Assembly: GCA_000934665.2 (NCBI GenBank)
Contig: JYFJ02002621.1
Span: 1-64,000 of the forward strand
Length of the DNA stretch: 64,000 bases
From: Catajapyx aquilonaris
Lineage: Eukaryota
Reading direction: 5' to 3'
In this document: one piece after another, positions 37,301 to 62,837 of the stretch
How the letters are laid out: each line of letters begins with the position of its first letter
Numbering within the stretch: position 1 is the stretch's first letter
The notes under the pieces: generated by a model
What the model saw: the letters and a program-made list of their open reading frames with translations, nothing else
Told to the model about the DNA's origin: nothing
Database searches by the model: none
Position numbers and translations under genes: made by a program

Positions 37301-40300
37301 AATGCACATCCTTTTGGAGGGTATTGTTCCCAAGGAAATCTCCCTTTTCCTAAAATTATGTGTCCACACTATAGGCAGTGGTTCACAAGGGCACAATTAA
37401 ATGATGCTCTATTGCTCTTACTGCCTTTCCATATCACAAGTCAATAAGTACCAGTGACTACCCTCGTCACTTTGAAAGTGACTTGATGATGGTGTCGTCT
37501 GCAAGTTCTGCACTGGTGCTTGTGTTACACTTACCACTTATTCTGGATCGCTATATTGCATCAGAGAAGCACAAAGAAGTGGCATGCTTGTTGCAACTGT
37601 GCCAAATTGTGCAAATGGTTCTGTCAGTCTTGTCACCAGTGCTGACTCCCGAGTCTTTTATTGCTCTGGAAACACTGGTAGCTAGCCACAATTTGAAGTT
37701 TATCCAGTGTTATAAAGCTAAATCATACACACCCAAATTTCACATGCTGGTACATCTTGTGAAGCAAGTAAAAGAATTCGGCCCTGCTAGGCACCATTGG
37801 GCGATGCGGTTTGAAGGCAACAATGCCCTCCCCAAGGGCAAAAAGTTCAACAATTTCAAAAATGTACCTTTTTCTGTGAGTGAATTTTATCAGGTGAACA
37901 TGTCATATCATTTGTGGGATGAAAGTGGGAGACCAAAGAGAGTAAAAGAAAGCAGAAATATTGTTGAAGGTAAACCAATTATTCTGAGTGATCCCCAGTT
38001 AGTGCCTGCATCTCTAAACAGTGATGCTGGTGTTGTGCATCTCTCCTTTCCCTCAGCAATAGTGAAAAATGTTGTGCTCAGGAAGGGAGATGTGATCACA
38101 GTTGGCTTGCCAACTGAAGATCCCAAATTTGTGAGCATATGTCAAATTGTTTTGCTGAATGGCGAAGTTCATTTTTTGTGTAAATTAATGTATCTTATCA
38201 AGTTCCTTGCCAAAGCCAACTGTTTTGTTTTGGGCCAAACTAGCCACACCTGCACCTTTCTTTCCAAAGACCTTCTGTACCCATGGCCACTCTACACCTA
38301 TGTCATGGGAAGAGACATATGTGCAATCCCACAATGTATCCATTTTTCTGGTAACCTCTTAAGATCTTAGCATTGATTTTCATTAAAGTGCTTAATTATG
38401 TTTTATTTCTTTACGTGCAAGCTGCCAATTGTTTGTTATTACCATTTCAGGAACGACGCCTGCCGGGAAAGTTTGTGTTGCCCTCATTTTCCTTGTATGT
38501 GCAACCATTGCTAAATGGTACGTTAGCAAGGAAAGAGTAACAGAAAGGATTTAGTGACCAACTGAAAAATGAAACTATACATTACCTGGAGTAAGTAATC
38601 TACTACCAGAGACTGCTGCTGTTTCATCATGTGGGTATAGCAATCTTTATTGTATTTTTCAGTGAGTCAAACTTCATAGAAGTTGGATCAAGTGCATCAA
38701 GGCGGTGGGATTACAACGACTTGGGGGCAGCAATTGCTGACAAGTATCCCGATATGCTGTGGGATTCCCCAAAGCCAGGGACCAAAGCATGTGGAAAAGC
38801 ACGGAAACATGCCTGGGTAAATAATTCAAACAAATCATGAAAAATATACTTTCAAAAAATCTGCTAACAATTATTATGCAGGAAATCCACTCAGATATAA
38901 TGATGGAATAAATTATAGAAAATTGGTGGAGGTCTTGCCATGTTAGTACTTTGGAGCGAGTGCCTATAATTATTTTTTCTGTTCATTCTGCTCTATCATC
39001 TTCATCTATAGAGTCTGTTTATCCACCGGCTCTCACTGAGGAGAAAAGTGTCCCGCCTCAGGAGGAAGAAAAAATCAGAAAAAGAGATGCCACAGGAAAA
39101 TGAAGCGGCAAGCAGTGGGCAAGAGGAGATGGATGTAGAGAGTGCTCTAAAAGAGCTACAGGTATGCTTAATAATGCACTTAATCTACTTTGCATGTCAT
39201 CAGCTGTAAGCGTTTCAGCAAGGAGTAGGGGAAATTAATTTTCTTAGCTGACCTGCTCTTGTAAATGTTCATTTTCCTTTCTGATATACCAGGGTGTCCC
39301 TTACTAGTCGCCCGTTCGTCCGGCAGTGCTGTAACCCATATTGTTTGAGGTGAAAGTAACAATATGGGTTACGTCACTCCGCGACGACATCGCTCCAATT
39401 CCCTCGTCAAATCGCTCACATGTAAACGCACCTTTAGGCCTATAGCATAATTATGCCATTACACATGCACATGATTGAATTCCTGTGTATCTGAAGAAAA
39501 TGACTCCACTAATAGGCTGTTATTTTATGAAATGTGCTTTTCATTTCTAGGCACTTGAGAAACACAATGCAGTCAATTATGACATTCCATGTGTATCGCG
39601 CATGCTGTCAGTGACATTTTCAAGGCGGATGACCAATGTCGTGGCATCTTATCTGCCAACTTACTTATTGGAATCAGATTTGGTAAGTGCTATTAAATGT
39701 GTATGCAGTTGATACTGCAGTGCCTAACATTTATTCCTTCAATCACATTTTTAGCTCTCTATGAGGTGGAACTCCGGTTCCAAACAAAATTATCTGATAT
39801 GGAGGAGAAGCTGCAGATGGTGAAGCAAGTATTTCAAGATCAATATTCAGCACCTGGTGCTACGTTTATCGATATTGATCACCATCTGCGGCCTATCTTG
39901 GCAGATACCTGCCTCATAACAGAGGTATGTTTGTCTTTACTCACATTTAACTAAGTCTCTCCATACCATAACAGCAATGAGCAGCCTGAATATTATCTTA
40001 GGTCAGGATCACTTTTAATGTTGTAAAGTTAGTGACTTATGTTGGAGCTGCTGATATCTAGTGTGTCTTCCAAACAGTATGTGCAGGTCCACTGTTATTT
40101 TAAAAAAATTAGGAGTGAACATAAGTAGATTTCAGATAGATACTGATCATGGCTTTCATGGTTCATATCACAATTTATTATTGTTGATTAACTCCGATAA
40201 TACCTCCATGGCGCTACCTAGCATGCTGACTTTAGTTGCTTGGTGGCTCTGTTGTTGTCAGGTTATTGCAAATTGAGAAATTGTGTACAATCCGAGCGCA

Positions 40301-40945: not shown

Positions 40946-43611
40946 AGTGCTGAGCCAAATAATATAAAATATAAAACTCGTCCTTGGGTATACCAACGTC
41001 ATCTGTACAATCCTACGACCACTGAAAAACAAGCTGAATATACTACTAAAAAATTAGTAAATAACCTTAAGTCATCAATTATTAATTATTATTTGTCCAA
41101 CAAAGGGGTTTTTAACTTTTAATTTGGACAAAAAATAAGAGTACTGAGTAATCTGTAACAACACTACTGTAACAACTACTACTACTGCAAGCGGACAATC
41201 ATCATCAACAGCATGAATACGGACTTCCTGCACTGGCCCATGAAGAAGTAGACACTGGTCAAATAAGTGCAACTGGGACTTCAGAAGGAACACAGCAATC
41301 AGCTGTCTCTTCCAGTGGGTCAACATAGATGTATAAAGTGTGGATTTTTCACTGCTAAGTATCAGACATTCGTAAAACATTAGCCAAATAAATGTTTTTT
41401 TTACAATTAACAAAATGATCTTTTGTGAATCTTTTGTGAATTGGTTACCAACCTGCTGGTATTTCTCTTATACTATAATATAGTGATGGCATTGCATGTG
41501 TGGTGGAGGGTGGGGATTAGGGGGTTAAGTTCCGCTGTTGACCAAGATTTTCAAATCTAAAACTAACCTAACCTTACTGAGGCCGGTGCAACTGGCCCTT
41601 AGGCGAAGTTCGACTTATAGAAGTTTTACCGTATTTGAATCACATGGTACGGTGTAGCTATTTGCTCATGTGCTGGATATTGGCATGTGATGTAGTGGGG
41701 AAGGTATGCCATTTGCAAAAATTGCGTCGTGGTCAGCAGAACACCATGCATTCGTCGTGAAGGATTTTTTTTTTTCCCTGCCCAAAAAGGCGAAGAAATA
41801 TCCTTAGGGACATCAGGACAAAGTCCTCAACCACCGGACGTTCATAAGGTGGATGAAGCAGTTCTGGGACACAGCTTCAAACCGGGACCAGAAAGCACTG
41901 GATGTCAAAGAACACAGAGGACCCCTCAACGGGTACAAGAGTTAGGCAATGCGCTATTCCGAAGTCCTCAGTGATCGGCCATTTGAAGCTCCGTTGAGGG
42001 GTCTGATGAGTCCTTTCATCCAGTGCTGTCTGATCACGGCTTGAAGCTGAGTCCCAGAACTGCTTCACCCACTTTATGAACGTCCGGTGGTCGGGGACTT
42101 TGTCCTGAGGTTCCAGCCCAAAAAGGCGAAGAAAGATACTTTGTACAGGTACAGAGGACTCATTATTTTTAAAATAATCCTCCACGACGAATGTATGGTG
42201 TTCTGCTGACCACGACCCAATTTTTGCAAATGGGAAATGGCATAACTTCCCCACTCTGGCACATGCCAATCTCCTGCTCATGTGCAAATAGCACCACCGT
42301 ACCACGCAATTCAAATACTGTTATTCACTTTGCCCAACCCTGGTACATATCATCAAGAGCTATATCAAGAACACTCATTTATAAAAACCACATGTCAGGT
42401 TGTACTTTTTGACCTTGAAGGATGTAATGTCAAACTTAATTTTGAGACAGGACACTCAACATTAATTATTAGATCAATTTAAGTGACTTTACAATCGAAT
42501 AGATTCACTAAAATCAAAATGGCACTTTTGAATCAACTGTATTTCAATAAAGCTAAAATACTTATTGCAGGGGTTGCAATGTTCAGATGCCAAAGTGCAA
42601 TTTGCACTCCAAAATATGTTATCTGCATTCCAAACTGAGCTTTGGACTGCAATGTTTGCATCCAGTTGGTCCTGCTTTTTACCATGACTAAGCCCAATAA
42701 TTAAAAATTAAGCACTCCAACTCCAAATGAAAATCTGGAGTGTGAACGTTGCACCTGGACAAAATATTTGAGATTCAACCCCTTTAATTGACCAAACTGT
42801 GATCCATAAGCTCAGACAGCGTGATCAATCGGACCTCGATGCATGGAAGAGTTATTGCTCCTACACCGAGGTACATGCCAGGGGCCAGCCTGAATCTTAT
42901 TTCAAGGGTGACCTCCCACTGCCACTACCTATTGCCCGCGTCATAATCAATATACGCAACCTGTCGTCCTCCTTCTATATTTACAAGGGAAAGTTTTGAA
43001 AATGGCTAAGGATGAAGTTTACAACTTGTGTAACACGGGGTTAAACCAGACTCTTCACCATATATTGTTGGAATGTCCTATTTTGGATTACCCCCATCTC
43101 AAAAAACTGCCAAAGGCCCCTCTGGTCTTTCAGTGCTGTACCTAAGGAACTTGCTTATCAGATTTTTCTTTTCTTCAAAACTGCTATGAACCTGCTTAAA
43201 ATGTACCAATACTGAGCGATTTTTTCCGGCCTGTAAATCGATGTCACGATGACGTTCCATGCATGTGTAGCAGGGCTAGACTGTATTACCTTTATTTTGC
43301 ACCAATTTGTAAATTGTATGTATACATGTATGGGAGTGGAGCTCCCCCGAATACCCTGTAAAGGGTGGCAATGGGTACTTACCAAACAAACAAACAAACA
43401 AAAAAAAAACTTTGATCCATCAGCTAAATCTTCATCCCATTGTTCTTTTTTTTATGTGAAATCATCTACATAAGACTGAAGTGTCTCATAACTATACAGC
43501 CTTTCCCAAAGCCTGCCAAATTGGAAGGCTGCATTTTTTGGGGTCCTTTTTGGAATGAAACTTTAATTCATAATAATAGTCACCATGATTTTCCTCCACA
43601 AACACCAAACA

Positions 43612-45774: not shown

Positions 45775-47718
45775 ACCTACACAATCCGAGAAGATTTTGT
45801 GGCATTATTAAGTCAAAATATCTTGGCTATTATATCAGACCCAGCCACAGTGTCCACTACCAAAATGAGAAAAATAATCTGGAATGAACTTCTGGCCCCT
45901 GTCAAAATAAAGGCCCTTTTGGCGGGCATTCCCTTGCTCCAGTGTCGACCATAATATATTACTTTATTACTGTAGAGTTCGTTCCCAAACAAGCCTGCTC
46001 AGACAACCAGCATAAAATCTACAGTATAGTAACAGTAAATTCAAAGATCAATTATACTACGATCGAACACAATGAGCGTCCTTGAAAACCGCCTTTAGGA
46101 GTGAAGTGTCGTCATGCATGAGGAAAAAAAAGGACATTGTCTACCCCATTGCTAACAGAATTTGCACCTGCCACCCTCCCCCACCCCCCATTCTAGCCAG
46201 CACTCGATAGCAAGAGTCGAGTGTAAAGGCCGCATTTGGTTTGGGGCTGACACGACAGGTGGTTCTCTTCGCCCCATCTTTGAGATAAACAACATTCCAG
46301 ATATCGTCTTTCTCGCCAACCATGACGCATTTCAGCTACATCGTTGCAGGTTAGTGGATGTGTATGTTGCGACGTGCAAGTTCCGAAAACTTACGTCTGG
46401 GAAAACGTTAGTGACACTTGATCACCTTTTGACATCTGGCCTTATAGCGCAAGGGGGATTATCTGGCTCTAATTTTTTTGTGTGTGTGTATTTTAATCTC
46501 CCGATAGTAGAGTATATAAACGGATGCGGTGGTTTCTTGGGTTCGTTCTGTAACGGGAGGACAGACGTTCGTGGGTTGTGTACGGAATTGTGCCAAAAAT
46601 GCATATGTTTCATGGAGTGGGTATGGCAGGGCTGATATGGAGTGCGATCGGTCCACGTGAGTTAAATCTAATCCTGTTCTGTACGATTACATGATAAGCC
46701 TGTCAATAGCAGGTCATTCTAAGGCAAGGAATTCTATAGGGATCCGTGCTTTGTGAAATATTCAAATCGTCCCGATTTGAATATTTCACAAAGCACGGAT
46801 CCCTAGAATTAAGTTCCGATTTGACCTAGGTCAGAACCAGCAGCTTGTGAATGCCACGTGTTTTGGATCAATTAATCCAAATCCTGTCATGATCACAAAA
46901 TTAGCCAATTTTATTGTTACATTTTTGCATGAACACCTAGGCGGGAAGCACAGGTAAGTTCACTGACACGGCCATATGCCGGTTCTGTAAGCTTCGCAAA
47001 CCGGAATTTACAAATGTCTCCCACATTGCCATGTTGGAGACAAGATAGTCCTTGAGAAACCAGTATCTGTGACATACGTGCTCTGACGCACGTACAAATG
47101 CTGGTATCATTGCGTATGGATGACGGAAATCTCCAGAAAATATATGTTCACACTTGGCATATGAGCAATATTGCAAAAGAGCGCTGTTTTAACTTTGTAC
47201 TAAATTCGTCGAAAAGTCGTGTCACTCTTATTCACAACCATGTAATACCGACTATACCGTACCAAGTTCGGTGCGAATATTTGAAGATGAGTTTACTTTG
47301 CACGCAAACCAGTGGTGACGGAATCGATCATTCTATTCCAGGGGTTACCAAACCTCGTTGGTAGCCACATATACACACCGCTTCTTAGAACCCTTCATTA
47401 CGTAAATGCGTCGTACTTTCTTCATTGCGCAAGACGAACAAATCGACTACGGTGTTTATTTGCCGGCCTTTTGAATATGGAGTTGGCGCGGGGTGCATCC
47501 GCGCATGTCACACACCCTCCTCCCAAAGTGGAAAAATCCTTTCAGGGTCAAACAAGCGAAGCACGACATGGCGTTTCCTTTCCTTGTGTTTCCCCAGCAC
47601 CCAGCTACGTCAAGTCCTACTTCAATAGGCCACAAAAACTGTTTTCGTGCCAGCTAGGCGGTGCCTGACTTTCTGACTAATCGATGAGAGTGGCAGCCAC
47701 ATGATACACGTCACAAGT

Positions 47719-50700
47719 ATGCATATCTTGAGTACCGGTAGATTGTTTATGTCGGAAGAAAACTGCATACATTCCCTAGCACTGTACAGTACCATCGTGT
47801 AGTATGCAGCCAGTATAAGCACAGGGTCAAATATGATGTATACTTTACAGCTGTTCGGTAGTGTTGTGTGTTCACAGCTGGCTGCAGGATTGCATCACAT
47901 ATATTGATTTGTTACAGGTTGCCTTCTGCTTCTCATGAGTACAGTGCAAAGTGACCAAAAATCAGCCATGGATGTCGCAGCCGGTAACAACAAGTTTGCG
48001 GTTGAGATGCTGCAGGTTTGTAATGCTGCATGTCATTTTAAACTAACATTGTACTGACTCAATTATGATGTTACAGATATTGCTGGATAGCAGCAAAGGT
48101 GAAAACCAAGTGTTCTCCCCATACAGCGTCAACACAGTGCTAGGAATGACTTACATTGGCGCAAGGGGTATGACAGAGAAGCAGATACAACAAGGGTTGC
48201 ACTATCCTCCAGACAGAGACGCTGTCCTTAGGGGTCATGAGGAGCTCCAGAAGACCTTGAACGTAGGATATGACAACCATTCTGTTCAAACATTATGATA
48301 AAATGTGAATGTGGTGGTTCACAGGGAGACCTTAATGTGACTCTGGAGACTGCCAACAAGTTGTACCTCGCAGAAGAATATGAACTGCTTCCCGATTACG
48401 AGCAGAAAGTCAAGGAGCATTTTGATGCAACTCCAGCACGACTTGACTTTAGCAAGAATGTGGAAGCTGCCAAAGTCATCAATGATGAGGTTGCTGAAAT
48501 TACTCATGACAAGATAAAGGACCTTATACCAGCTGGTAAAGTACATCACATTGCTTGCGGAGTAAATAACTTGGTGGTGTGGGCATAACATATTTGCCAT
48601 TTGTATGAACAAAGATCAAGGCTCAAATCTTCAATTTTGTCAGATCATGTATTGTCAATACCTACACATAATTGGAGATTTTCCATAATTTGCCTCTACA
48701 CAACTGGGCCTTAGTGTCTAGCTGATGCCCTGCTTTACAAATCATATAATTTACTCCTGAAATTACTGGAACAAATAAGTTGGACCCTAACCTTGTTTAT
48801 TGGATTGCAGATGCCCTAGATGATCGCACAAAGTTGGTGCTGGTCAATGGAATTTATTTCAAGGGTCTATGGGATCTCCCATTCAAGAAGTCACTAACAA
48901 CACCCCAAGATTTCTACATTAACACTGTGGACCCTCCAGTCAAGACACAAATGATGGCCCAGGAGGCTAAGTTTTTCTATGCTGAAATTGATGAGATTGA
49001 TGCTCAAGTGCTCTTCATGCAATACCAAGTAAGTTTTCACTCTAGGTCGGGCTGTCCATAAAGTGTGTTACATTGGTAGTTGATAACAGCATTATCTTTC
49101 AACTTCTTCAGGGTGTTAACATTATCTTACACACATAAAAGGCCAAGTTTGTTGGTATGTCCCATTGCCCTCCCCCACTACCAGCCCCCGGACACTCATA
49201 CTACCTTCTGATGTTATCACCTGCCGTGGAGTTTTGAAGAAGGTGCTCACTTGAGAGCGCCATGAGACATTTCAGTCTCTGGATAAGTGGCGACCCTGCC
49301 GGACTAGGCTGAACTTTAGAGATACAAAAGGGAAGCGCTACATGCGGGCCCAAAATGGCCACCGGCGCCCATGTTGGGTCCCCCAATGTAGCGCTTCCCT
49401 TTTGTACCTATAAAATTCAGCCTAGTCCGGTAGGGTCGCCACTCCCGGAGACTGAAATGTCTCATGGCGCTCTCAGGTGAGCACCCGCTGCAAAACGCCC
49501 CGGCAGGGGGTAGGTGGGAGTGTCCAGACCTTACACCTTACTTATATGACCATGCCCACTACTGCCCCCTCCCCACCACCACCCACTCCCCTCTACCTCC
49601 ATGGTTACCATAGCACGGGTTCATGGTGCCAATTTTAATGCAGCCCAGTCGAATTGAAATCAGCTGATGTCATGATATGGTGTTTTGTGTGGTACACTTA
49701 GGCTGCCTGCATCTTTCACAGTAAAAACCACCATTATCAATTGCTTACAAGCACCACAAAAAAACTCACAAAAAACTGTTGTCACTGTAGCAACATTACC
49801 CAGGTCACTTAACATACAACCTTCTACAACCCAACATACTTGTTCCCCCTTTTCTCTGCAACAGAGCAGATGCCTATTCTGATTTACTATTACGAGTATT
49901 ACTATTTGCAAAACTTAATTCAGGATCCAGAAAAATGCACAAGATTTTGATTATGGTGTAATATATTACTCTGTTTATAAGATTGTGCTTGTACTAAAAT
50001 TTGAAGAACAAGAAAAACAAATGTCTATCTATCTCATCATCTCATCTCTATCAAATATCTAGTACACTTCAAATTCCAAAAAAGTAGTTTCCAATCTTAT
50101 TGCTTCTGATTCAGATGGACAAGGCTTAAAAAGTGCCAGAAATCATAGCGACCCCTTCATTAGGCTTCCCCCTGCTTTAAACTTTTGTAACAATACATGA
50201 TGATGATAATTTGGGTAGTGCAGACTTCCTTGAAGGTATTGCATGGACCTTTGTTTTGTGCTCACAGTCTGTTGGTTTCGTCGCAACGAAGGTGAAGGGG
50301 GCAGGATTTGATCCCCTGGACCTACCACGTGTCTGACCAGTAGAATAACCACTAGACCACTGTGCCCTCTGTATCAATAAATATTTAACCTAGATAACTC
50401 AATATTTATTTGTGTTTCAGGGAAAGAAGGTGGAAATGGTATTCATTCTGCCTCGTGCCAAGGATGGCCTGACCGACACCCTGAAGAAGTTGAAAGAGAG
50501 TTACTCTTGGGAGCAAGTGGTCAAGGCAGTTTCCAAGGTTAAGGTTAGAGTAGTCCTTCCCAGCTTCAAGATTGAAGCATCAATGAAGCTTAGGGAGTCT
50601 TTGGAACAGGTGAATATACATATAGAGCATAATTACATTACTCGTAATTTTTAAAGCAATGATGTTACTAAACTTGAACCTTATTTAGCTGGGAATGGTG

Positions 50701-53166
50701 GATATGTTCACCCCAGCTGCAGACTTCAGTGGAATTTCTGGAAAACGTAACCTGCTGATATCAGAAGCAGTGCAGAAAGCATTCATTGAGGTGAATGAAG
50801 AAGGTGCTGAAGCTGCTGCTGCAACAGGTAAGCAGTCTCTTTATATGGGTTTTTGTTGTGCTTTTATTGGAGCTTCATTTCAAATGTGAATGTCAGCTTT
50901 ATAACAACATGCACGCACTCTTATTTAAAATTTCATTTACGTGCTTGCTTCTGTAGGTGCGGTACTTCGTGCCAGAAGAGCATTAGAAGATGTAATTGGC
51001 TTCAGAGCTGACCACCCATTTTTGTTTGCCTTAACACAAAAACATCCTCTGAGCGCACTATTGTTTGTGGGAGCTTTGATAAAGCCAACCTCTGAACCTG
51101 TTGTATCACTGCATGAAGAATTATGATTTGGTGTTTGTGTATGTTGAGGTTCAATGTGATGAGGTGTGCTACAAGGGCAAAAGGTGTCATCCAGCTGACT
51201 AACTTCCACTAACATAGGCCTATCAAATTATAATGCACTCTTTTGCATTCCTGTAGGTCTTGTTATGGTTGGATTTGCTCGGCCATCAGCACCCGACCTA
51301 GTTCACAATTTCAGAGCTGATCATCCATTTATATACACCATCCGTGAAGCACAGACCGGAACTGTCCTGTTTATGGGGGCATACCAGTCACCCAAATAAA
51401 ATTTGATCTAATTTGTAAAGTCAAAAATGACAGGACTAGTGGTTGACAAGCCAGTTGTGTACTTGTGTGACGTAACCTGGTGGATTAAGACGTACCACTT
51501 ATGCTGCATTATGCAGTGACATCAGAACAGTGCAATGGTGTCATAACAAAATGTTCCCCATATAATGTGCCTTTTGTCTCCTATGAAGCTTAGGCTACAG
51601 TTTATGTTGTAACTTGGAAAGGAATAAAAACAAATTCTGACAAATTTATGACAAACAAATTTGTGACTACCCCACAGGAGTGGTTATCACCAACAAAATG
51701 ATGGTGCTGCCCAAGGCTACCTTTAAAGCAGATCATCCATTTGCCTTCTTCATTTCTGATGCACTAACTCGGACAATTTTGTTTGGTGGAGTGATGGCAA
51801 AACCTTCCACAAACTAATAGGTATATGGATTCTCATCCTTCTTGTTACAGCACTAATCTTTGAGAATGCAATGTTTGGGAGTTCGCACAGTGTGTGCCAC
51901 TTTTCGAGTTTTTATGCGCACTGTATTTGTCATAATTCCATCTGCAGGTATAAGCTTCGAATTTCTGGTTGACATCCCAGTGCCTGCATTTGAGGCTGAC
52001 CATCCCTTTGCTTTTTTCATTCACTCAGCAGGGACCATCATATTTTCAGGCATATATGTAATGCCACCAGATGTATCAACATAAGTCTGAATATCATGAT
52101 TCCCATTAAAACTGGCTTTGAAGCTTGCCTTTAACAGCCTATGCATTCACATTTTGCTACCTTGCCTGCATCAATGTTATAAAGCCCTTTAATAGTGTAT
52201 CAAGAGTTGAATTTCAAAACTATCAGTTCACCCTTGTTCACATGTACACTAGTTGTTGAAAAAATTGCCTTGTACCCCCATGCAGGTGTGGGTGGAAGCA
52301 TGAGTGAGCGTGACTTGATTCATGCATGCTTCCATCCGTGCCTGTTTGGTTGGCTGCTTGGCACTGCCTGTGGGGGTACAAGGTAGTTTTATCCAGCACT
52401 GGACCACGGGCAGATTTACTGGTATATTCAGTAGGTGTATGTATTAGCAAGGTATTAGTGAATCTACCAGTTAGCTGTGCTGATCAGAAACTAATTTTAG
52501 CACCATTCAGATATACTGAACATGTTTTGAGATGCAAATCGTCAACTTTTATGTCCTCCTATTAGAATCTTTGGGAATAACTCAGGCATTATCATTTTCA
52601 GGTATTGTTATAGAAGCAGTTGCTTACTACCCACCACAATTGTTTGTGGCAGACCATCCATTTGCGTTCTTCATTCAAACTTCTGAGGCCATTCTGTTTG
52701 CTGGCACCTATGTAAACACACCTTCTAGCATGTAATGGGTTGTAAGTTAATTCATTGACTGTTCCTATGCAATAGTGACTGCTCTTCAATAAAATTTCAT
52801 TTCACAATGGATTTCTTAAACTGCCCTGAAGTCACATGTACTATGTTTTACGTTTCTTTTTTTGTGACAATCCCTCTGTTGAACTAACAGTGTCTTCTCT
52901 ACTAACATTTGCACCATCACGCACACATAAATCCAATGACGCCATGCTGAGCACATAACAGAAGGAATGCTTAAAACGCTTTCAGCACATATATATTCAG
53001 AATTAACACATGCTGTCAAACTCCTGTAGGTATTTCAATGATGCGTTCTTTGCAAGAGGAATTCACTTTCTTTGGGAACCACCCATTCATATTTGCAATA
53101 CAATTACACACAAGCAACACCACCCCTATACTATATTTGGCAGCATTCCTGAGACCTCAGAGTTAA
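47719..53166 (+). CDS. Serpin H (Spn42Da/SRPN10/serpin-1-like) with alternative terminal RCL exons
   Basis: Common exons: leader 47719-47737 (or 47833-47857), 47918-48015, 48077-48262, 48325-48535, 48811-49028, 50421-50609, 50689-50827 (ends [11 protein letters not shown]|gt, phase 1). Six phase-1 terminal exons follow. Confidence 0.93.
49190..49527. mobile_element. foldback MITE (~150-bp inverted arms) in a serpin H intron
   Basis: ggtgctcacttgagagcgccatgagacatttcagtctc...gggaagcgctacat is mirrored by atgtagcgcttccc...gagactgaaatgtctcatggcgctctcaggtgagcacc. Confidence 0.8.
50290..50369 (-). mobile_element. tRNA-derived SINE head fragment
   Basis: Minus strand reads GGCACAGTGGTCTAGTGGTTA...GGGGATCAAATCCTGCC (A/B-box-like). 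Confidence 0.45.
50957..51126 (+). CDS. Serpin H alternative RCL exon 1 (GAVLRARR|A ... HEEL*), proprotein convertase inhibitor type
   Basis: ctgtag acceptor, phase 1, FRADHPFLF, stop at 51126. Confidence 0.92.
51257..51399 (+). CDS. Serpin H alternative RCL exon 2 ([11 protein letters not shown]..., P1 Phe)
   Basis: cctgtag acceptor; [35 protein letters not shown] overlaps the stop. Confidence 0.9.
51678..51817 (+). CDS. Serpin H alternative RCL exon 3 (GVVITNK|MM..., P1 Lys)
   Basis: ccacag acceptor; [31 protein letters not shown]. Confidence 0.9.
51948..52084 (+). CDS. Serpin H alternative RCL exon 4 (GISFEFL|VD..., P1 Leu)
   Basis: tctgcag acceptor; [33 protein letters not shown] at 52105. 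Confidence 0.9.
52286..52386 (+). pseudogene. possible degenerate alternative RCL exon of serpin H
   Basis: catgcag|GT acceptor at the expected spacing. [23 protein letters not shown] resembles a decayed ADHPFLF; early stop. Confidence 0.35.
52602..52735 (+). CDS. Serpin H alternative RCL exon 5 (GIVIEAV|AY..., P1 Val)
   Basis: ttttcag acceptor; [33 protein letters not shown] at 52788. Confidence 0.9.
53030..53166 (+). CDS. Serpin H alternative RCL exon 6 (GISMMR|SL..., P1 probably Arg, short loop)
   Basis: cctgtag acceptor; [38 protein letters not shown] at 53479. Confidence 0.85.
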
Positions 53167-53674
53167 AACTGATACTTGGAAAAATAATGGAAAACTATAT
53201 TCACCATCACAATGCTCATCATTCATCATAAGAAATTCAACACATCTATAGTTATAACTGTCTGAAGAAATACTACCTAAGGAGCAAACATGTGGGCTGT
53301 GGCCAAGACTGTATATTTCTTTAATAGTAATCCGGCCTTGTATAGTGCCAATCACATCATCAAAAAATTAGCTCTGCATTACTACACAAATGCAGAAATT
53401 ATGTTGAGTAGCTATTGCAATGTTATTTCGGTGTCTTAACACATTTGAAAGCAAAAACTACTGTTGTATGCAACAAAGAATAAAAGCTGTTATATTTGTC
53501 AGTATTATTGCAATTTAGTGTTCTTGAATAACCAATTTATTATGGACTGGTTGCATGATCAAGAGTACATCCAGAACAAGTGATTAATCATGTGACTTAA
53601 CATCACCACATCAACCACATGGTCCAAAGTGGCAATAACAAGCAAGAGCATGCTGCAGCGAGTTATGGTATACT

Positions 53675-54024
53675 CAGGGCTGGCCCTAGGTGAGTGCGGG
53701 GCCTAGGGCAAGAACTAAATGCGGGGCCTATTCTCAGTGAGTGAATTTCTGTACAACACGAATTGCGTATCCAAAATTATTTGTTGGCTGGCTTTCTATA
53801 ATAACGTACAACTGAGGGGCGTAGACAGAAAATTTTAGGGTGCGGGCCCATAAGCAGTAGACGGAGGGGAGCAAGCCCGCCGCAGGCGAAATTTTTTTGG
53901 AGTTCAAGGTCACACGAGCTTAGTTGAATGTAGTAGATTTGAATGGGTGTGTATTGATGAAATACTCGTTCAAAATGTCACTAACTCTTGACTTATTTTA
54001 TGAGCTCTCTCTCCCTCTCTCCCT

Positions 54025-54055
<31 letters not shown>

Positions 54056-54126
54056 GGCGCGGGGCCCCCCAGAAGAGCGGGGCTCCGGGCGGTCGCCCGG
54101 ACTGCCCACCCCTAAGGCCGGCTCTG
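53675..54126. mobile_element. hAT-like MITE with perfect 8-bp TSD
   Basis: ggtatact|CAGGGCTGGCCCTAGG...CCTAAGGCCGGCTCTG|ggtatact; internal (CT)n. Confidence 0.85.
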
Positions 54127-55056
54127 GGTATACTACTTTCAGTTAGATGCATTACACTCACAAAATGGTGACCTATGGCCAACCCATGGACCATAGAAAA
54201 TCGTATGAATTTTTAGTAAATAATTAAGTTATTAACCCCTTCGCTACCAGATAGGCCCGAACCACGTAGATTTTGGATTACGCGTACTCCGAAGATACGG
54301 ACAAGGTATTTTACAAATAATAACATCTATACTTATCACGTTCAGGGAAAACACTATGAATGTGTCTGGAACAATTTTACTCGTCTAGAAGTCCCAAAAT
54401 TAATTTCAAAAAAAAAGGCTATAAAAACTGTAAATCTGAGTAGGCCTACTGCCGACCAACTGTTAGGCTGATTTAATTATGAAATGCGTGATAATATGAG
54501 GAATTACAACCTTGAGAACCATGCCAGACGAATTTTCTGAACTCGTCGTACTTTGCGAGAAATTTACGCCTGCGGCGGGCTCGCTCCCCGCCCTTTGCGG
54601 CTCCTTCACCTAGTGCTTATGGAAACCCCCCCGTGATTTTTTTTTCTGTTTACTCCCCTGATTGAACTATTGATGAACAATGGGCCGGTTTTAAGACCCA
54701 GGTGTGTACAGCTGTGATTTTTTTCCAGCAAAATCCGAGATGATCTAGCAACATTTAGGCCCACTGATTGGGAAAAACCCCTATATTTGAGAATTTTTGT
54801 TTTTGACTGCCCCGAGGTCAAAAACAAATTGCAGACAAAATGAATGGTCATTATGAGTTACCAGTGACCTAAGGAACACGAAAATGGCGATGAATTCCCA
54901 TGAACAGAAAAAAAGTTGATTTTTGTTGCATAGTGTAGTTAACCATTAATAAATAACCATGCAAGAGTAACTTCTTAATAACTAATAACCAGCTGATACA
55001 AAAAAAATCACAACAATCTGACAAGTATTTCGAATCACCCTCTCCATTGTAGTGTA

Positions 55057-55353
55057 ATAATTTGTACCCCGTGCTAGAGCCATGGGCCCTCTTAGGGGGG
55101 TGGGATACCACCATATTTTTTTTTTTATCTGGAACTCTTGCTTTCGTTTTTACTTCTCGTATATGGGGACGGGATAGAGACGGAAGGAAGCGGCTGTCGC
55201 CTATAATTACGGACACGACCCCGGAATTTTCCTGGGGAGACCATGGGAAACCACAGAAAACCACGGTCAGGGTCGGCGGCCACCGGGATTCGAACCCAGG
55301 ACCTCCCGATTAGCAGTCGGATACCATATCCCCTCCTCTTCCACTGCTTCGGT
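55057..55353 (-). mobile_element. tRNA-derived SINE
   Basis: B-box GGTTCGAATCCC and a central GGTTTTCTGTGGTTTCCC motif. 17-bp TSD ctctccattgtagtgta at 55040-55056 and 55354-55370. The tail motif is shared with the SINE at 13319. Confidence 0.85.
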
Positions 55354-56033
55354 CTCTCCATTGTAGTGTATATTTACGTATAGTTTCAGTATAACTCGCA
55401 ATGTAATATTAATTAACTGAGATGTGAGCAGATGTGCAATGCGATGTAACACATGTTCAAAAATTTTACGTAATTTTGACTATGGTAGTACTTGTGACCT
55501 ATTGAACCTAAAGACCTCAAAATTCGGGTTCTTTATGTGGCCAGAGGACACTGAGCACTTTCATCAAAATAAAAAATAGGGTGTTATCTATATAAAAAAC
55601 TTGGTCCAATCTGCCCAGGAATTATCCAAGAAAGACTTGCCTCAATGAACAGTACTACATTTCCTCTCAGAATGTCTCCTTACAATTTATGAAACGTGTC
55701 AAATTAACTTGGGGTTAGTTCAGTTCGTTTGTTGTTCTGTTCATTAATTTGTACTATGAATTTTTTGTATTCCTTTGTGCCACAATATCATCCTGTAACA
55801 CCTCACATTCTCCGCATAATTTCGGACATTATGAAATACTGTTAAAGTGTTAATGGATCCATGAAAAAAAAACTTGTACATAATTCACCAGTTTTATTGA
55901 AATTGGCATTATAACATACATAGTATCAATTCCGCATATTAAGCAGCTTGTTCTCCAAGCCAGGTTTTATTTTCAAAGGAAGACGCGTTTTTAATGAGCG
56001 CACTGAACAGTATACGTAAATGCTGAAGGTCGT

Positions 56034-56043
56034 GGGAATTTCC
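56034..56043. promoter_or_regulatory. candidate NF-kB (Rel) site upstream of serpin I
   Basis: GGGAATTTCC matches the GGGRNWYYCC consensus, ~540 bp upstream of the ATG. Confidence 0.3.
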
Positions 56044-56585
56044 CTGACGCAAAAAACTAATAGATGGAGGGAAAAAAAACTGCAAGGAACAGGTTTTGTA
56101 CCTTCGCAGTTGCCTTGCTACTGTCATTCGTTCTAAAAGCAAAGTCAATTAATGGCCCGCGCATTTCCGGTACACTACGCATTATAACAAGGTCTTTATA
56201 AGCAAAGACACTGCCACAAGAGTGTCTACACATTCAGCTAGAAATTGCCGACTTCCTCAGGTATGACTGATGCAAACCGCGCCTTTTCTGGTACCACTTC
56301 CTTCCTCTGACCATTTCCTCAGTGGATACGGAAGTGGCTTTTTTTTTTAAATATATAGAAGTTGATAACAAGTGCCAAGGTGGTCAGCAACTGGAAAGTC
56401 CCACTACTCGATCCATTTCTGAACCCCATTTGAAAACCCGAATAACCTGAGACGACGTGGCAACCTCGACCACTGGCCTTCTTCCTCGCAGCGGCGCCTG
56501 AATCGCAAGTTTGTCCACTTGCTCACGATCATCGTGTACGTCTTCAGTGCACCACAGTGCTTGGGGGGATCAACGTCATTCCATC

Positions 56586-59500
56586 ATGGCAGGTGAGAAA
56601 TTTCACGCCTTTTCCAACCCTTCCGGAAAAACTGTACATTTTGTAGCTGGTTCCTTTCGCATACAATTTGACTGAATTCGCACGAGAGCAGCTTATATGC
56701 CCTTGGTGTTTATGTAGATATTAATTATGATCAGTGAAGCCTTAATCTGTAATATGCAGTACTATTAACGCAAATGCGTCATTCACGTCGGTTTACTAAT
56801 TTGGGCCGTATATTTACTTTTGGTCAAATGCAAGTGATTGGCACCGATTATTATAGGAGAATGACAGCAGTCGAGTGAACTGTGCAGTGTTTGTTGAAAT
56901 TAACTTCGGTGTTTATGAAATTCGAATTATGCAAAACTATGCTGCAGCAAAATGACCTCGCTGAATAAAATAACCATTTATTTTCCAGTCACATCGATAG
57001 TGACATGTCTCCTGATAACATATGCATTTCCGATGTGCGTGCACAGCCAGCGTTCAAGAGCACCAGAACATCCGAGAGCCGACAGTTTCAGGGACACAGT
57101 CACTGCCAATGACAAAATCGGCCTCAAGCTACTGCAAGTACGTTCATTCCACATACATAAAAAAGGATGTCTAAGAGGCTGTGTCATTTCCATAAATGTG
57201 CCTCATGATTCCCAGATTATCGCACATATCTAACGGCTCTATTACCCATCGGGGAGTCCCCTTACCGATGCGTGGCAGTGCCAAGAGTTCTTCGTGTGGC
57301 CCCCGGGGGCTTCTTTCTTCAGCCTGTTTTTCAGTTGCTACACAGCTCTACATAAATTATGGGTCAACTTCTTACATCCCGAAGGCTTCGTTAATTCTTG
57401 CTTCGCAGAAGAGACCTACGTAGTTTTGTTTGGGAATGGAAAACCACAGTTTTAGGAATCGATTTCAAGGGGTTGTGATGTCCTTGACATGATCTGGTGT
57501 AAACTGGTCATTTCTGGGACATACGAAGGAAAATTATGGGGTGGCGCGCTATTCAAAGGAGAGACAAACCCAACCTGGCAACTTATACGATCTTGTTTCA
57601 TTTTATTGTATTAATGATGTAACTACAGGGTTTTCAAATGGTTTGGGTTAGAGTTTATATGAGCTATTTTATCTCAAAACGGAAGACAGGGTGATCGAAA
57701 AATAATGCGCTTATTTGAAAACCCTATAACTCAAAAACTTGTAGACATATCTTAATGATTTAAGTTTTGAAATGCTAAGAAAGGCCTAAAGTCTTGGTCC
57801 TACCATAGTTTGTTTCGATATGAGCTCCATTTATCGATCGGCAGATTTAAAAAGACTATATTCAGTCTCGTGCTCAACCCGCTCAATCATATCTGGAGTT
57901 ACCACTGCAATCCTATATCCCATAGGTGCTGGATATCTCGGATCTTTACACCACACGCATTGTTCTTGACGATTCAAATAAAAAGTCGCCTCATCCATGA
58001 AACAAACCTGCCGTAGAAAAGTTTCATTTGTTCAGCCTCCCAGTATGCGAAGTCTTGAATGAGAAATTTCCCCATGCCTAGCTCCCTCAGAAACCCAGAT
58101 CCTACTCCAATGAACTTTTTTGTAGAGATACATGTATGGTGAAAAGATTCGGGATCTCCATCACCTATGCATGGGATAGTATCACAATGGTGACTCCAGA
58201 CATGTCTGAGTGGGTCAGGCACTACACCGAATCACCGATTACCGTAATTACGTTTTTTTGAGCGACAAATGGAGCTCATTTCGAAACGAACTAAGGTGAG
58301 ACCAAAACTATAGACATTTCTTAGCATTTCAAAACTTAAATCATTTAGATAGGTCTACCAAGTTTATGAGTTACAGGGTTTTCAAATACGCGCATTCTTT
58401 TTCGGTCACCCTGTATATCTTGATACCTACTCGTCTCAACGGGCATTTCAATCCACCAGTCCTCGTACTATGACGTTGCTATTAAAAATCAGGTTCTTGC
58501 CAGCGTGTTTTAACTAACTGGTTTCATATGAATATGCAGGAAAGGGCCCGATTTGACAACTGGCCTTTACTTTATAGAAGTTGGGCAAGCCATGCAAGAT
58601 GATCAGGTCGTCCACCCACATTATTTATGAAAACCCCAGGTATTCAACATGTATGTATGTATGGGTTGGGAGGGGGTAGATAATTATATTTCAATGGCTC
58701 AAGTATATCTCTCAAGTAGTGGTATTAATTTTGCGAATATTCTCGTTCGGTTCTCGCGTGACAAAGTTGGATAGGCCTGAATGAATAATTTGTTCATATA
58801 CAGGAATATTTCCGTGCATGTTTCGATGGGCTTCCAGTGTAATCTAATCGAGCTCTAATAATGACGATCACGTCGACATAAAGATGTGCTGTTTCCTGCA
58901 CTTCAGACATCATCACGAAAGCGATAAGCATTTATTGGAAGTCGTCTCTTGTGGAGTAGGCCTATGTATTTGCAAAATCGTCAGTTCATCAATCGTTTTT
59001 TTTTCCTTCTTCAAAAGTTAACATTAATGAAGTGTCATTGTATTTTTGCTTTAAAAGTGCAACATGTCAGCACCCTACTGAAATATTACAATCAGTTATG
59101 TTGATAATTACATCGGCGCATGTGTTTCGAAATATGCAAATTAATGTGGACTGACGGAAATTCTCAATTTTCACATCCATTTTCCTGCTTATGTATCACA
59201 TCGCGCGGGGCAAATTTATGACGTCATTCACCATGCTCGTGACGTCAAGGCGCCAAACTGAACGTCCTACTGCCGCAACTTGACGTCATTGGATTCACGA
59301 ACTTTTATAAATCAAATCGCATGAGTTGCATATTGATTTTGGTAAATATGCCAGTTTTGTCTCGTGTGTGATGACGTGCAAAATCAATATTAATTAGTTC
59401 CTTTATTTTCACATAATCAGGCTCAGTAGGAAATGTCAACGTCGGGTTATCTATCAGCACAATTTTACGAACCATTATTAGTATGTAGTGGTTCATCAGA

Positions 59501-62500
59501 AGGTTGTGAGAACTGCTCAAGGCCAATGGGGTGCATGAGACATGCAAATTTTCTGGGTAAAAACACACCTGTCTTAGACATGAAAGGGAAGACTTGCATT
59601 AGGGGGCGCTTTGGAATGAATCAGCCTCTATAAGCAGAAAACAAAAATACTGCAAACATTATATGTACATCAACAAGTATGCATTTAAATTTGAAAATAA
59701 TTCCTCCTTCATTATTATCAATACCAACAATATGCTTCTACTCCAGCCTGAGTAATACAGTATACAGTACAAGGCTGGTAACCTTTCTAGGGGGAGTCCC
59801 CAGACCCTCTGTTGTCTCAGTTTCATGAAAATTTCCCTACTCTGGTCTCTGGGTAATAAGGTTGGAAAAAAGGAAATGCTTGGTCGAGTTTGTGACCTCC
59901 TGAGAAATAGGCTTATGCCTAATCCACCAGAGTGCTCTAGTATGCCCTGCTAACAAATCATATTACATCACCTAGCATTACACTTAACACTGTTATCAGG
60001 GGGTACTGATAAATTTATTATTTTTCAGGCTTTTTCAAAGCAGAAACGGACAGAAAACATTGTCTTCTCGCCTGCCAGTGTCAACTTGGCTACAGCCATG
60101 CTAGCTGAAGGGGCTAGGGGAAGAACTGCTGAACAACTGCACTCCTTCTTGGAGCTCCAGAAGGACAGCCGGGACTATGGATACAAGAAAATGTCTGGTG
60201 TGTTGGTATGTATACAATTGGCATTACTTGGCAGCATGGCACAAAACCATATAGATGTGTACCATTACAGAGATCACCAAGCAAGCACAACAAGATCAAG
60301 TCAGCCAATGCACTATTTGTAACTGCAGACATACCAATAGATGGTGTTTACAAGGACAGAACAGCCGATATATTTCAGTCTGAAATAAATAACATTGATT
60401 TTGGTGACACACAGCGAGCAGCCAAGAAAATTAATGACTGGGTAGCGCGCGTGACTGAAAATACTATTGAGCAGCTTGTTACGCCACGTAAGTTTCACAT
60501 ATAAGTGAGTTCCAAGTAGTTCTAGTTGTGTTGATGTTGATACCCAAGGTTGACTACAAGCATTGCATGAATAACACACTAATCAAGTATATATAAGGCC
60601 CCTCTCTGAGGAGGAGGATATAGGATGATATAGGAGGAGGGTGGAAAAGATTTCGCACTTCCCGGCGTCTCAGATGTCTCAGAGTAACACCGTTGGATTC
60701 CTTGTCCCAGAATTACCAATGACAAAAATCCTCATAATTGCGAACAGCCGTTTTCGAGATAGCCAAAAGTCGATTTTTCGGCTATAATATCAATATACTC
60801 GCTTTGCGAGGGGGGGGGGGNGGGGGGGGGGGGGGGGGGGCTCGCAAAGCGAGTATATTGATATAGCTTCAAGTGTGATCTAAGAAATATTCTCCATGAT
60901 ATACTATAGCATTATATTAGCCAATCCAACTTAAGATGCTGTTTTGTATTTCATATCATCATCATCATCATTAATAATAATAATAATAATAATAATATGC
61001 AGGGTATTATTCTCCAGGAACTATTTCCTCCACTTAATACTAGTTTTAATGATAATCCATGTTCTGCATTTTAATAAACAGGAACAACACATTCTGAGAA
61101 AGTACAAAAAATTATAGGGTAAATTGTCACAATTTTAAATAATTGTGCTTTGTGAAATTTTCTTTGCCTAGTTTACTGTCAGACATTTCTAGACGCATGC
61201 CAACTGGATGTGTGGTGGGCAAATCAGTAGTAAGAAGTATTATCTTTATGATGTAGCTATGCCTTAACTGCATCTGTTGCCTGTGACAAAAAAAAAAATT
61301 GCACTTATCGACAAAAACTCTAATGCTTATTTTACATAATATCATACCCACAAAATTTCAGCTAATGGCTGCACTTAAGGTACTCGCTACTTGAAAAACA
61401 AAAGAGATAACATGCAACATCATAGCCAAATCAAGTGTACTTAACTTGATTGTTATTCTCTTTGCACAGTAAGAGTCCTTTCATACTGTATATTGAATGT
61501 AGTGCAGGTAATTCTCAAACATTAGTAATTTTCACACTGTGGGAAAAAAACATTTAAGGTAATTTGATATTCTTTAACAAAATTACTTAGTTGAGAATTT
61601 AGGGCCAGTTGTATGACTGCAAAATAATGAGAATTTCTGATTTAGTATTGTGAATATACATGCATACAATTTGAGATTTTCCTCAATTTGTGTTCATACC
61701 AATCAAATTCACAACACATATTCTGATATAATCATAGATTTCCTCCTTAGGACTTTCCCTTAATAAGCAAAATGTAAAATTTTCAGATGCATTGTCTCCT
61801 GACACCCGAATGGTAATCAGCAATGCTGTATACTTCAAGGGGAAATGGAAACACCCATTTCCTCCTACATTCACAAAGCGAGATGTATTCACAACTGAGA
61901 AGGGGGAAGAGGCAGCCTACATGATGCGCATACAGGGCTATTTCTCTTACAAGAAATTTGACCCACTTGACTGTGCTATCTTGGAGTTGCCTTATGCTGT
62001 GAGATTTGCTTGCTTTTCTTGCCATTCAGAGCATGGATTCTCGGGAGAGATGTTAATTTTATCTAGCTCCATTGTGCAAAAAGAGTAATTAAAAAGTCAA
62101 TGAAAAAATCATAGCGTTTTCACACTTCACTACAGGAAATAATTATGTTTGATCTGTTAGATATAAATTTCCCGAGATTCCAGCCATAATTATTCCCTTG
62201 CCTTTTAACTAATATTCAAATGCTTGGAATTTGATTTGCAGGATGGGGAATATGTTATGAACATCATCCTCCCCAACGGAGTTGTCAATATGGCCCAATT
62301 TACAGAGAAACTGAGCAATTTCAATTTGGCAGAGTTGCTGTCTCGTGGAAAACTTACGGAAGTGGAAGTCACTTTGCCAAGATTTAACATAGAGATGGCA
62401 CAAAGTCTCACTGGGATTTTCAAGCAGGTAAATACTCAGAATAAAGCCTCATTGCTTTAGAAGGAAACTGACAGGATAGGCAGAATTGTAGACATTGATC

Positions 62501-62837
62501 AATTATTCTCCTTTTTCAGATGAACATAAAGGATGTGTTTGGTGGCCAGTCTGACCTCTCTGGCATAAGTGGGCCAACTCACAGGTTGTCTGTGTCTGAG
62601 TTCTTCCATAAGGCTGTGATCCAAGTGTCTGAAGAAGGGACTGTGGCTGCTGCAGCTACTGGAGTTTACATCATTCCTTTAACAGGATTCCTGAGTCCCG
62701 ACAGGTTCAGGGCTGAGCGTCCCTTCATCTACTGCATCAGACACTATTCCAGTAACCTCCTTATCTTCATGGGCCAAGTTGCTAATCCTGGTCTAGTGGG
62801 ATCTCCAGTTCCACAGGTATACTATTCTTATCATTAG
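56586..62837 (+). CDS. Serpin I, secreted, predicted inhibitory (RCL EEGTVAAAATGVYIIPL|T, P1 Leu)
   Basis: Exons 56586-56592, 56989-57137, 60029-60205, 60271-60487, 61787-61998, 62242-62427, 62520-62837. Motifs VFSPASV, NAVYFKGKW, FRAERPF. An alternative unspliced ATG exists at 56952. Confidence 0.92.
57688..58413. mobile_element. Tc1/mariner-type foldback MITE in a serpin I intron
   Basis: CAGGGTGATCGAAAAATAATGCGCTTATTTGAAAACCCT... and ...AGGGTTTTCAAATACGCGCATTCTTTTTCGGTCACCCTG|TA; long imperfect inverted arms. Confidence 0.85.

Follow-up and report, generated by a model that had tools for sequence, protein, structure and literature searches.

The stretch of DNA analysed here, hereafter referred to as the window, comprises positions 1 to 64,000 of contig JYFJ02002621.1 and is identified as animal DNA by its composition (40% G + C), its spliceosomal introns and its transposon open reading frames (ORFs). 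A tblastn search of the window with one modelled isoform detected nine serpin genes or gene fragments within these 64 kb, which were designated A to I (Table 1). One of them, gene H on the plus strand, had been described in an original prediction as a single serpin scaffold followed by six exchangeable reactive-centre loop (RCL) exons. According to the analyses presented below, gene H is likely one secreted serpin gene of the inhibitory type, in which a single phase-1 donor is spliced to one of six tandem loop exons. It represents a new locus, a well-defined six-loop serpin gene with partial transcript support inside a nine-gene serpin cluster.

Transcript evidence was drawn from one public sequencing run of unrecorded kind (32 million letters of contigs, with 0.55 of the sampled words present), whose spliced contigs suggest that it is cDNA. 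The contigs, which show presence and not absence, were aligned to positions 47600–53800. A single contig of 1165 letters removes all five constitutive introns as modelled, with 102–210 letters on the sides of the joints, and all constitutive introns of gene H have GT..AG borders. The N-terminal part of the gene was recovered from the same contig, which has 115 extra letters upstream of position 47911; a 30-letter consensus of these letters matches positions 46313–46342 exactly and only once. The exon thus located ends in ...ccATGACGCATTTCAGCTACATCGTTGCAG/gttagt (a slash marks exon borders here and below) and probably starts near position 46228, and joining 46349 to 47918 keeps the reading frame. 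The ATG at 46322 is the first of the transcript, since the 87 nt before it contain no earlier ATG, and an in-frame stop lies upstream. Within the encoded N-terminus, Kyte-Doolittle hydropathy peaks at 3.09 in a hydrophobic core, and from this composition a signal peptide is predicted. This signal-peptide exon was missing from the original prediction.

The serpin identity of the gene is evident from Pfam searches, which were run exon by exon and not on whole spliced isoforms. All 11 pieces examined (five constitutive and six alternative exons) match the Serpin family only, and the five constitutive exons tile positions 16–328 of PF00079 in order, with E-values from 1.1e-8 to 5.9e-17. The hinge exon ends in GCA ACA G/gtaagc, the next exon completing a Gly codon (phase 1), and the last 25 nt before the donor at 50827 are unique in the window even when three mismatches are allowed. 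Inhibitory serpins have a hinge consensus with small residues at P12–P9, Gly at P15 and no bulky or charged residue at P14; the hinge of gene H, as read from the sequence, fits this inhibitory-type consensus. A further observation concerns the phase-1 intron between 48535 and 48811. Its distance from the YFKG motif, a rough measure in place of an alignment, would put it near position 174 of alpha1-antitrypsin in phase a (after the first base of the codon). An intron at 174a is reported for the lancelet Spn-1 gene (PMC2556349).

Within 2.3 kb after the hinge exon, six tandem exons follow, each of which has a YAG/G acceptor, encodes its own loop and a (D/N)HPF core, and ends in a stop. Sequence reading, exon modelling and Pfam thus confirmed the original description of six phase-1 loop exons behind the hinge, each with an (A/G)(D/N)HPF signature and a stop codon. 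The core reads ADHPF in five of the six exons and GNHPF in exon 6. All six match the last approximately 35 positions of PF00079 (334–370 of 370; E-values from 7.8e-8 to 0.017), and only two of them score above the 27-bit whole-protein cut-off when taken singly, an expected outcome for pieces of 43–55 amino acids. A scan for (D/N)HPF-type motifs in all six frames of the window gave 13 matches, namely the six loop exons of gene H, five C-terminal exons of serpin genes on the minus strand, and two matches that are likely due to chance. No seventh loop exon was found in a loose motif scan of positions 50800–59950 on the plus strand, where the one additional match, at 52686, falls within exon 5 in a different frame. 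By the convention that counts the hinge Gly as P15, the P1 residues of exons 1–5 are Arg, Phe, Lys, Leu and Val, in agreement with the original prediction; exon 6, to which Arg had been assigned as well, has Ser at P1 and Arg at P2. The scissile bond of exon 1 is LRAR/R by this canonical count and would be RARR/A only with a loop one residue longer.

Table 1. Serpin genes of the window, exons of gene H, and nucleotide similarity between its loop exons.
Feature	Positions	Strand	Remarks
Serpin gene A	5738-3607	-	tblastn
Serpin gene B	10551-8186	-	tblastn
Serpin gene C	13063-11954	-	tblastn
Serpin gene D	17709-16253	-	tblastn
Serpin gene E	22244-19225	-	tblastn
Serpin gene F	26839-25378	-	tblastn
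Serpin gene G	30654-28136	-	tblastn
Serpin gene H (six-loop gene)	46322-~53500	+	tblastn, exon model
Serpin gene I	59996-62786	+	tblastn
H, first exon, 3' part	46313-46349	+	ATG 46322; donor G/gt 46349/46350; encodes MTHFSYIVA-G, predicted signal-peptide start
H, exon 2 of the scaffold	47918-48015	+	remaining predicted signal peptide and serpin N-terminus; in-frame internal ATG 47935; joint 48015 to 48077
H, constitutive exon	48077-48262	+	Serpin positions 16-74; joint sides 102 and 189 letters
H, constitutive exon	48325-48535	+	Serpin positions 80-145; ends in phase 1; joints seen
H, constitutive exon	48811-49028	+	Serpin positions 148-217; joints seen
H, constitutive exon	50421-50609	+	Serpin positions 219-282; joints seen
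H, hinge exon	50689-50827	+	Serpin positions 283-328; single donor feeding the cassette
H, RCL exon 1	50957-51126	+	ADHPF; P1 Arg; RARR; HEEL C-terminus; Pfam E 9.8e-4
H, RCL exon 2	51257-51399	+	FRADHPF...SPK; stop 51397-51399; P1 Phe; Pfam E 7.8e-8
H, RCL exon 3	51678-51817	+	...PSTN; stop 51815-51817; donor after 51820; P1 Lys; Pfam E 1.4e-6
H, RCL exon 4	51948-52084	+	...DVST; P1 Leu; TAA/gtctga directly after the stop; Pfam E 0.0039
H, RCL exon 5	52602-52735	+	...SSM; P1 Val; Pfam E 3.7e-5
H, RCL exon 6	53030-53166	+	...RPQS; GNHPF; ILYLAAF; most divergent; Pfam E 0.017
AATAAA, likely shared poly(A) signal	53479-53484	+	contig ends at 53486
RCL exon pair 1-2			nucleotide similarity, E 0.002
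RCL exon pair 2-3			nucleotide similarity, E 3e-4
RCL exon pair 3-5			nucleotide similarity, E 4e-6; extends 5 nt, taking in stop and donor
RCL exon pair 4-5			nucleotide similarity, E 4e-11; 72.5% identity over 80 nt

Three joints within the cassette were represented among the contigs, all with GT..AG ends and exactly on predicted sites. The hinge donor 50827 is joined to the acceptor of exon 2 at 51257 (contig depth 178.5; short side of 26 + 4 letters) and to that of exon 5 at 52602 (depth 164.8; short-side anchor of 25 letters). The latter acceptor is used from a second donor as well, which is located after the stop of exon 3 (TAG/gtatat at 51820/51821; joint depth 47.9). The original prediction had named junctions from donor 50827 to all six acceptors as its test; those to 51257 and 52602 were recovered, and the joints listed for this run include none from the hinge to 50957, 51678, 51948 or 53030. 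Positions 50912–51118 (exon 1) had no contig cover in this run. Of the earlier claim that one gene makes at least six inhibitors, the scaffold with several alternative RCL exons is therefore upheld, two of the six acceptors being joined, and the number of six products goes further than these joints do.

The same contigs are informative about the 3' part of the transcripts. The contig starting from the joint of hinge and exon 2 is unspliced from 51255 to 51824 and passes through exon 2, the spacer and exon 3. Exon 4 is covered solely by a contig that crosses it unspliced (51795–52628; depth 20.1), and the exon 5 contig continues unspliced from 52600 across exon 6 to 53486, where it ends just after the AATAAA at 53479. 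Since the contigs run unspliced through later copies, the downstream loop copies constitute 3' untranslated region (UTR) of the upstream choices. AATAAA or ATTAAA signals were found for exon 2 at 51395 (overlapping the stop) and 51623, for exon 4 at 52105, for exon 5 at 52788 and for exon 6 at 53479, and none was found after exons 1 and 3; the earlier statement that several exons have such a signal nearby thus holds for four of the six. Because contigs cross 51395, 51623 and 52788, these signals were read through in that run. Hence the term "alternative terminal exon" of the original prediction is not supported in this form: later copies are carried as 3' UTR, the donor at 51820 is used, and poly(A) signals are read through. 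A strict version of that design, in which each of six independent alternative terminal exons has a poly(A) site of its own and no copy serves as UTR of another, would explain the signals downstream of four exons, but appears very unlikely. It conflicts with the contig of hinge and exon 2, which crosses 51395 and 51623 and proceeds through exon 3, with the joint of donor 51820 to 52602, and with the exon 5 contig, which crosses 52788 and exon 6 on its way to 53486. It also does not account for the GT at or close to the stop in exons 3, 4 and 5 (within 3 nt in exons 3 and 5, 0 nt in exon 4), or for the homology of stop and donor between exons 3 and 5. As the contigs do not reveal 3' ends, own-poly(A) and read-through modes may coexist.

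The six loop exons are old copies under constraint. Over the core segment that begins with F-x-x-DHPF and extends to the C-terminus, the ratio of the proportions of nonsynonymous and synonymous differences (pN/pS) is 0.41–0.73 in all 15 exon pairs, whereas it ranges from 0.53 to 1.92 in the loop part; silent sites are saturated, with pS values of 0.55–0.99. At E < 0.01, the six units resemble each other at the nucleotide level in four pairs (Table 1), with the similarity confined to coding sequence apart from 5 nt in pair 3-5; the flanks share short matches only, with E-values of at least 0.02. The randomization of the flanks, while every exon has kept its frame, phase, acceptor and serpin core, argues that all six exons are maintained by selection. 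This bears on the rather unlikely explanation that exons 2 and 5 are the only working choices and that exons 1, 3, 4 and 6 are relict duplicates surviving as intron or 3' UTR. Such an origin would fit the hinge joints, which in one run lead to 51257 and 52602 only, the location of exons 3, 4 and 6 inside contigs that cross their acceptors unspliced, and the degenerate state of exon 6 (Pfam E-value 0.017), the most divergent of the copies. However, despite saturated silent sites and unalignable flanks the four exons retain their frame, a phase-correct YAG/G acceptor, the F-x-x-(D/N)HPF core and the (I/L)(L/I)(F/Y) and Pro motifs, and they still match the Serpin profile. Moreover, the dibasic loop of exon 1, which is in register with the RLKR of a related protein described below, and its terminal endoplasmic reticulum (ER) tetrapeptide would be hard to obtain in a dead copy, and the contigs do not speak to absence.

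An even less credible explanation is that the array represents an assembly artefact, or debris of broken serpin genes that is unrelated to the scaffold. The presence of nine serpin genes or fragments in the window and of small N gaps at 1305, 3342 and 60821 would be compatible with it. Positions 46000–54000 contain no N gaps, though, and copies that differ at saturation are not collapsed or expanded repeats; in addition, two of the copies are connected to the scaffold in an independent run, and tblastn detected no other serpin exon types among the six loop exons. This explanation can practically be dismissed.

According to the preferred explanation, alternative splicing of one scaffold to six loop exons, the signal-peptide exon and six constitutive exons build the serpin body up to the hinge (P17–P8), and donor 50827 is spliced to one of the six tandem exons, which would supply everything from P7 onward, that is the RCL, strands s1C, s4B and s5B, and the stop. 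Exons 1, 3, 4 and 6 would serve as coding choices in the same way as exons 2 and 5, as judged from their sequence features. One promoter and one scaffold could thereby give rise to inhibitors that differ in P1 (Arg, Phe, Lys, Leu, Val, and Ser or Arg). Translation would end at the stop of the chosen exon, everything downstream being 3' UTR; at least some transcripts do keep later copies and extend to a shared 3' end near 53500, in part by way of the donor after the stop of exon 3.

Several observations count against this explanation. The transcript evidence rests on one run whose kind is unrecorded, and the short sides of the cassette joints have 24–26 aligned plus 4–6 ambiguous letters, which is below the 31-letter bridging threshold; sides of 24–26 letters are the expectation for a k = 31 graph at a branch, and these joints are weaker than the constitutive ones. 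The stop of the exon 2 transcript lies 421 nt before the splice at 51820, and a stop that far upstream of a splice is in some animals a mark for nonsense-mediated decay. Exon 6 is the weakest copy, combining the Pfam E-value of 0.017 with GNHPF and a replacement of the Gly in the ILF-G motif. The pN/pS values compare paralogous copies of approximately 30 codons, and the constraint is thus not assignable to any one copy. Finally, none of the nine inner branches was supported in a tree of 12 C-terminal peptides of the window, so that phylogeny does not demonstrate that the exons arose through duplications inside the gene.

Pairing of selector and docking RNA elements was considered as a means of exon choice and rejected, as neither a recurrent intronic element nor a shared complementary site was present among the 21 direct-repeat families and 18 inverted pairs. 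The multi-copy direct-repeat families D1–D4 are located in coding cores; the short inverted pairs lie scattered. In the spacer between exons 4 and 5, nested inverted repeats with 30-nt arms (80% and 73% complementary) occur at positions 52251–52400, which look like a small foldback or an insertion of the miniature inverted-repeat transposable element (MITE) type.

Exon 1 differs from the other loop exons in that it alone extends 12 residues past the conserved Pro, ending in ...SLHEEL before the stop. Neither its greater length nor the HEEL ending had been included in the original prediction. A HEEL-type ending occurs in none of the five other loop exons and in none of the six other serpin C-termini of the window. 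HEEL is reported to confer ER retention in HeLa cells, and in a sea-urchin serpin it occurs together with a signal peptide and a dibasic loop (PMC2556349). In Drosophila, the serpin Spn4A has RRKR as a furin site within the loop and HDEL at its C-terminus (PMC4147316). By analogy, the exon 1 isoform, with its predicted signal peptide, RARR and HEEL, is expected to remain in the ER and early secretory pathway and, like Spn4A, to act as an inhibitor of furin-like proprotein convertases, which makes it a candidate proprotein convertase regulator. The other five isoforms lack HEEL and would be expected to be secreted. We infer these protease targets, the ER retention and the secretion of the isoforms from their sequences.

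An exhaustive search with the exon 1 peptide retrieved seven matches at E-values of 0.001 or lower. Six of them are bacterial repeat proteins that match only "...RTRADHP..." and were discarded as spurious. The seventh, P0141, is a predicted serpin of 728 amino acids that matches isoform 1 at 39% identity along the entire length of that isoform; a signal peptide and the hinge EEGTEAAAATG are present, and five additional segments with ADHPF come further along the chain. The RLKR of P0141 aligns in register with the RARR of exon 1, and its tail ...PAYSAHDEF aligns with ...PVVSLHEEL. The whole chain can be divided into a complete serpin, an unrelated stretch and the five extra ADHPF loop segments. 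P0141 thus probably represents a loop-cassette locus in another animal that was read through by the gene predictor, with the convertase-type exon in first place as in gene H. It also illustrates how easily such loci are mis-modelled during annotation, six loop exons having been strung together into one protein. A sequence search against PDB with exon 1 gave weak matches to serpin C-termini (best E-value 0.013; Spn42Da, entry 4p0f, E-value 0.46). The exon set had originally been considered probably lineage-specific; the saturated silent sites and the counterpart of exon 1 in a protein as distant as P0141 point away from this view.

The remaining serpin genes of the window show a variety of C-terminal arrangements. 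Multiple loop exons occur in gene H only among the nine members of the cluster, and genes A, B, E and F likewise have their loop on a separate exon. In genes G (28136–28411, minus strand) and I (62511–62786, plus strand), hinge and loop share a single exon. These two genes accordingly lack the phase-1 intron behind the hinge that A, B, E, F and H possess, and its presence and absence within one cluster implies that intron loss or gain has taken place there. Gene D consists of a single exon of 285 amino acids and a hinge exon, with no recognizable (D/N)HPF loop exon downstream, and the tblastn match of gene C is interrupted by an in-frame stop and includes neither hinge nor loop; D and C may both be pseudogenes. 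The same genome region thus diversifies its inhibitors by gene duplication as well as by exon duplication.

Other features of the window include two adjoining long ORFs of 336 and 321 amino acids at 36390–38367 (plus strand) that are transposase-like. The best named relatives of the first (36390–37397) are from ticks and a spider (46–53% identity), and its nearest Atlas cluster is commonest in Arthropoda; one Ciona match of these ORFs carries PF02992, and Pfam itself gave no match. An open reverse-transcriptase ORF of 308 amino acids runs off the window start (3–926, plus strand), and its nearest Atlas clusters carry PF00078 and are commonest in Chordata, Nematoda and Mollusca. In the gene-poor stretch between the serpin genes, a weak CIDE-N match below the cut-off (34464–34721, plus strand; E-value 1.3e-4) and a match to the helix-turn-helix family DUF4817 above the cut-off (41880–42320, minus strand; E-value 1.8e-7) were detected. 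An Rfam search of the window gave no match.

Cassettes of loop exons have been a known mechanism for decades, and gene H is a genuine further case. The original prediction had equated the device with that of Manduca serpin-1, Drosophila Spn42Da and Anopheles SRPN10, and this is borne out by the split one base after the hinge and by the joining of the hinge to two acceptors. Among insects, C-terminal alternative splicing was reported for 192 of 731 genes of the relevant clade, and in 161 of these 192 genes the split is located one nucleotide (G) after the hinge (PMC10513286). The same source describes PpSerpin-1 of Pteromalus with 21 loop exons, and forms with and without signal peptide as frequent. 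Similar RCL splicing has been noted in nematodes and urochordates (PMC4006314, citing Kruger et al. 2002, Pak et al. 2004, Ragg 2007, Borner & Ragg 2008). A survey of Ixodes ascribes the serpin diversity of ticks to gene duplication and not to loop-exon splicing (PMC2689274). Searches of the open-access literature on loop-exon splicing gave mainly insect papers and two tick serpin surveys; they yielded no report of such splicing in mollusc serpins, and titles and abstract openings yielded none of a Ciona serpin cassette.

Gene H has no close relative among the sequences searched. Its best insect-type relatives, P0014 and P0141, are 36–39% identical. A word-indexed protein search with the 72-amino-acid exon at 48811–49028 found nothing closer than 42% (six matches among 16 candidates), and one with the 285-amino-acid exon of gene D nothing closer than 38%. 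A metagenome scan returned 23 loci, all of them distant (36–62% identity over partial matches) and mostly on short contigs. PDCD10, a syntenic neighbour in the neuroserpin lineage, was not found among the 145 ORFs of at least 55 amino acids outside the serpin genes of the window, a scan in which short exons would be missed.

In the layout of its cassette, gene H resembles Manduca serpin-1 and PpSerpin-1, which likewise have tandem exons reaching from the loop to the C-terminus and a split one nucleotide (G) after the hinge. In Manduca serpin-1, every version of exon 9 has a stop of its own, and a common 3' exon comes after it. The donor located behind the stop of exon 3 in gene H is reminiscent of this step from exon 9 to the common 3' exon, but no separate common 3' exon is evident in gene H, where in one run the last loop copies form the shared 3' end. 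With respect to its predicted products, gene H resembles Spn42Da, which has four loop exons and eight isoforms (PMC4006314), and of which the Spn4A isoform inhibits proprotein convertases and other isoforms affect other protease classes (PMC4006314, PMC4147316). Both genes combine one scaffold with alternative RCL exons and a form with signal peptide, and exon 1 has RARR and HEEL where the Drosophila isoform has RRKR and HDEL, although the canonical count sets the scissile bond of exon 1 one residue before the end of RARR. They differ in the number of RCL exons (four versus six in gene H), and in the alternative 5' exon that gives rise to an intracellular form of Spn42Da and was not seen in gene H.

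A third group for comparison comprises the secretory-pathway serpins of the neuroserpin lineage (lancelet Spn-1, sea urchin Spu-Spn-1 and vertebrate group V3), which have a signal peptide, basic residues at P2-P1 and a C-terminal KDEL or HEEL (PMC2556349). The vertebrate group V3 serpins, including neuroserpin, have an intron at position 352a (PMC2746811). Place and phase of this intron match those of the cassette intron of gene H by the mapping given below, and a difference is that these serpins have one loop per gene, compared with six in gene H. We take the cassette intron to correspond to 352a of alpha1-antitrypsin, in the P7 codon, by a mapping that assumes P1 = Met358. The shared 352a intron may reflect homology or coincidence, and makes gene H useful for dating the cassette design. 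With an ER-retained furin-type isoform, a 352a intron and a loop cassette predicted in one gene, gene H could be a counterpart of Spn4/Spn42Da outside the insects and possibly outside the arthropods, an idea that we regard as speculative and on balance unlikely. If it were true, the secretory-pathway serpin and the swappable-loop design would have been inherited from an early bilaterian ancestor and not repeatedly invented, and gene H would bear on the question, left open by Kumar & Ragg (PMC2556349), of whether fly Spn4 and the neuroserpin-type serpins of deuterostomes are homologous or convergent. The most interesting detail of gene H in relation to these systems is the occurrence of a Spn4A-like exon 1 isoform together with the 352a intron.

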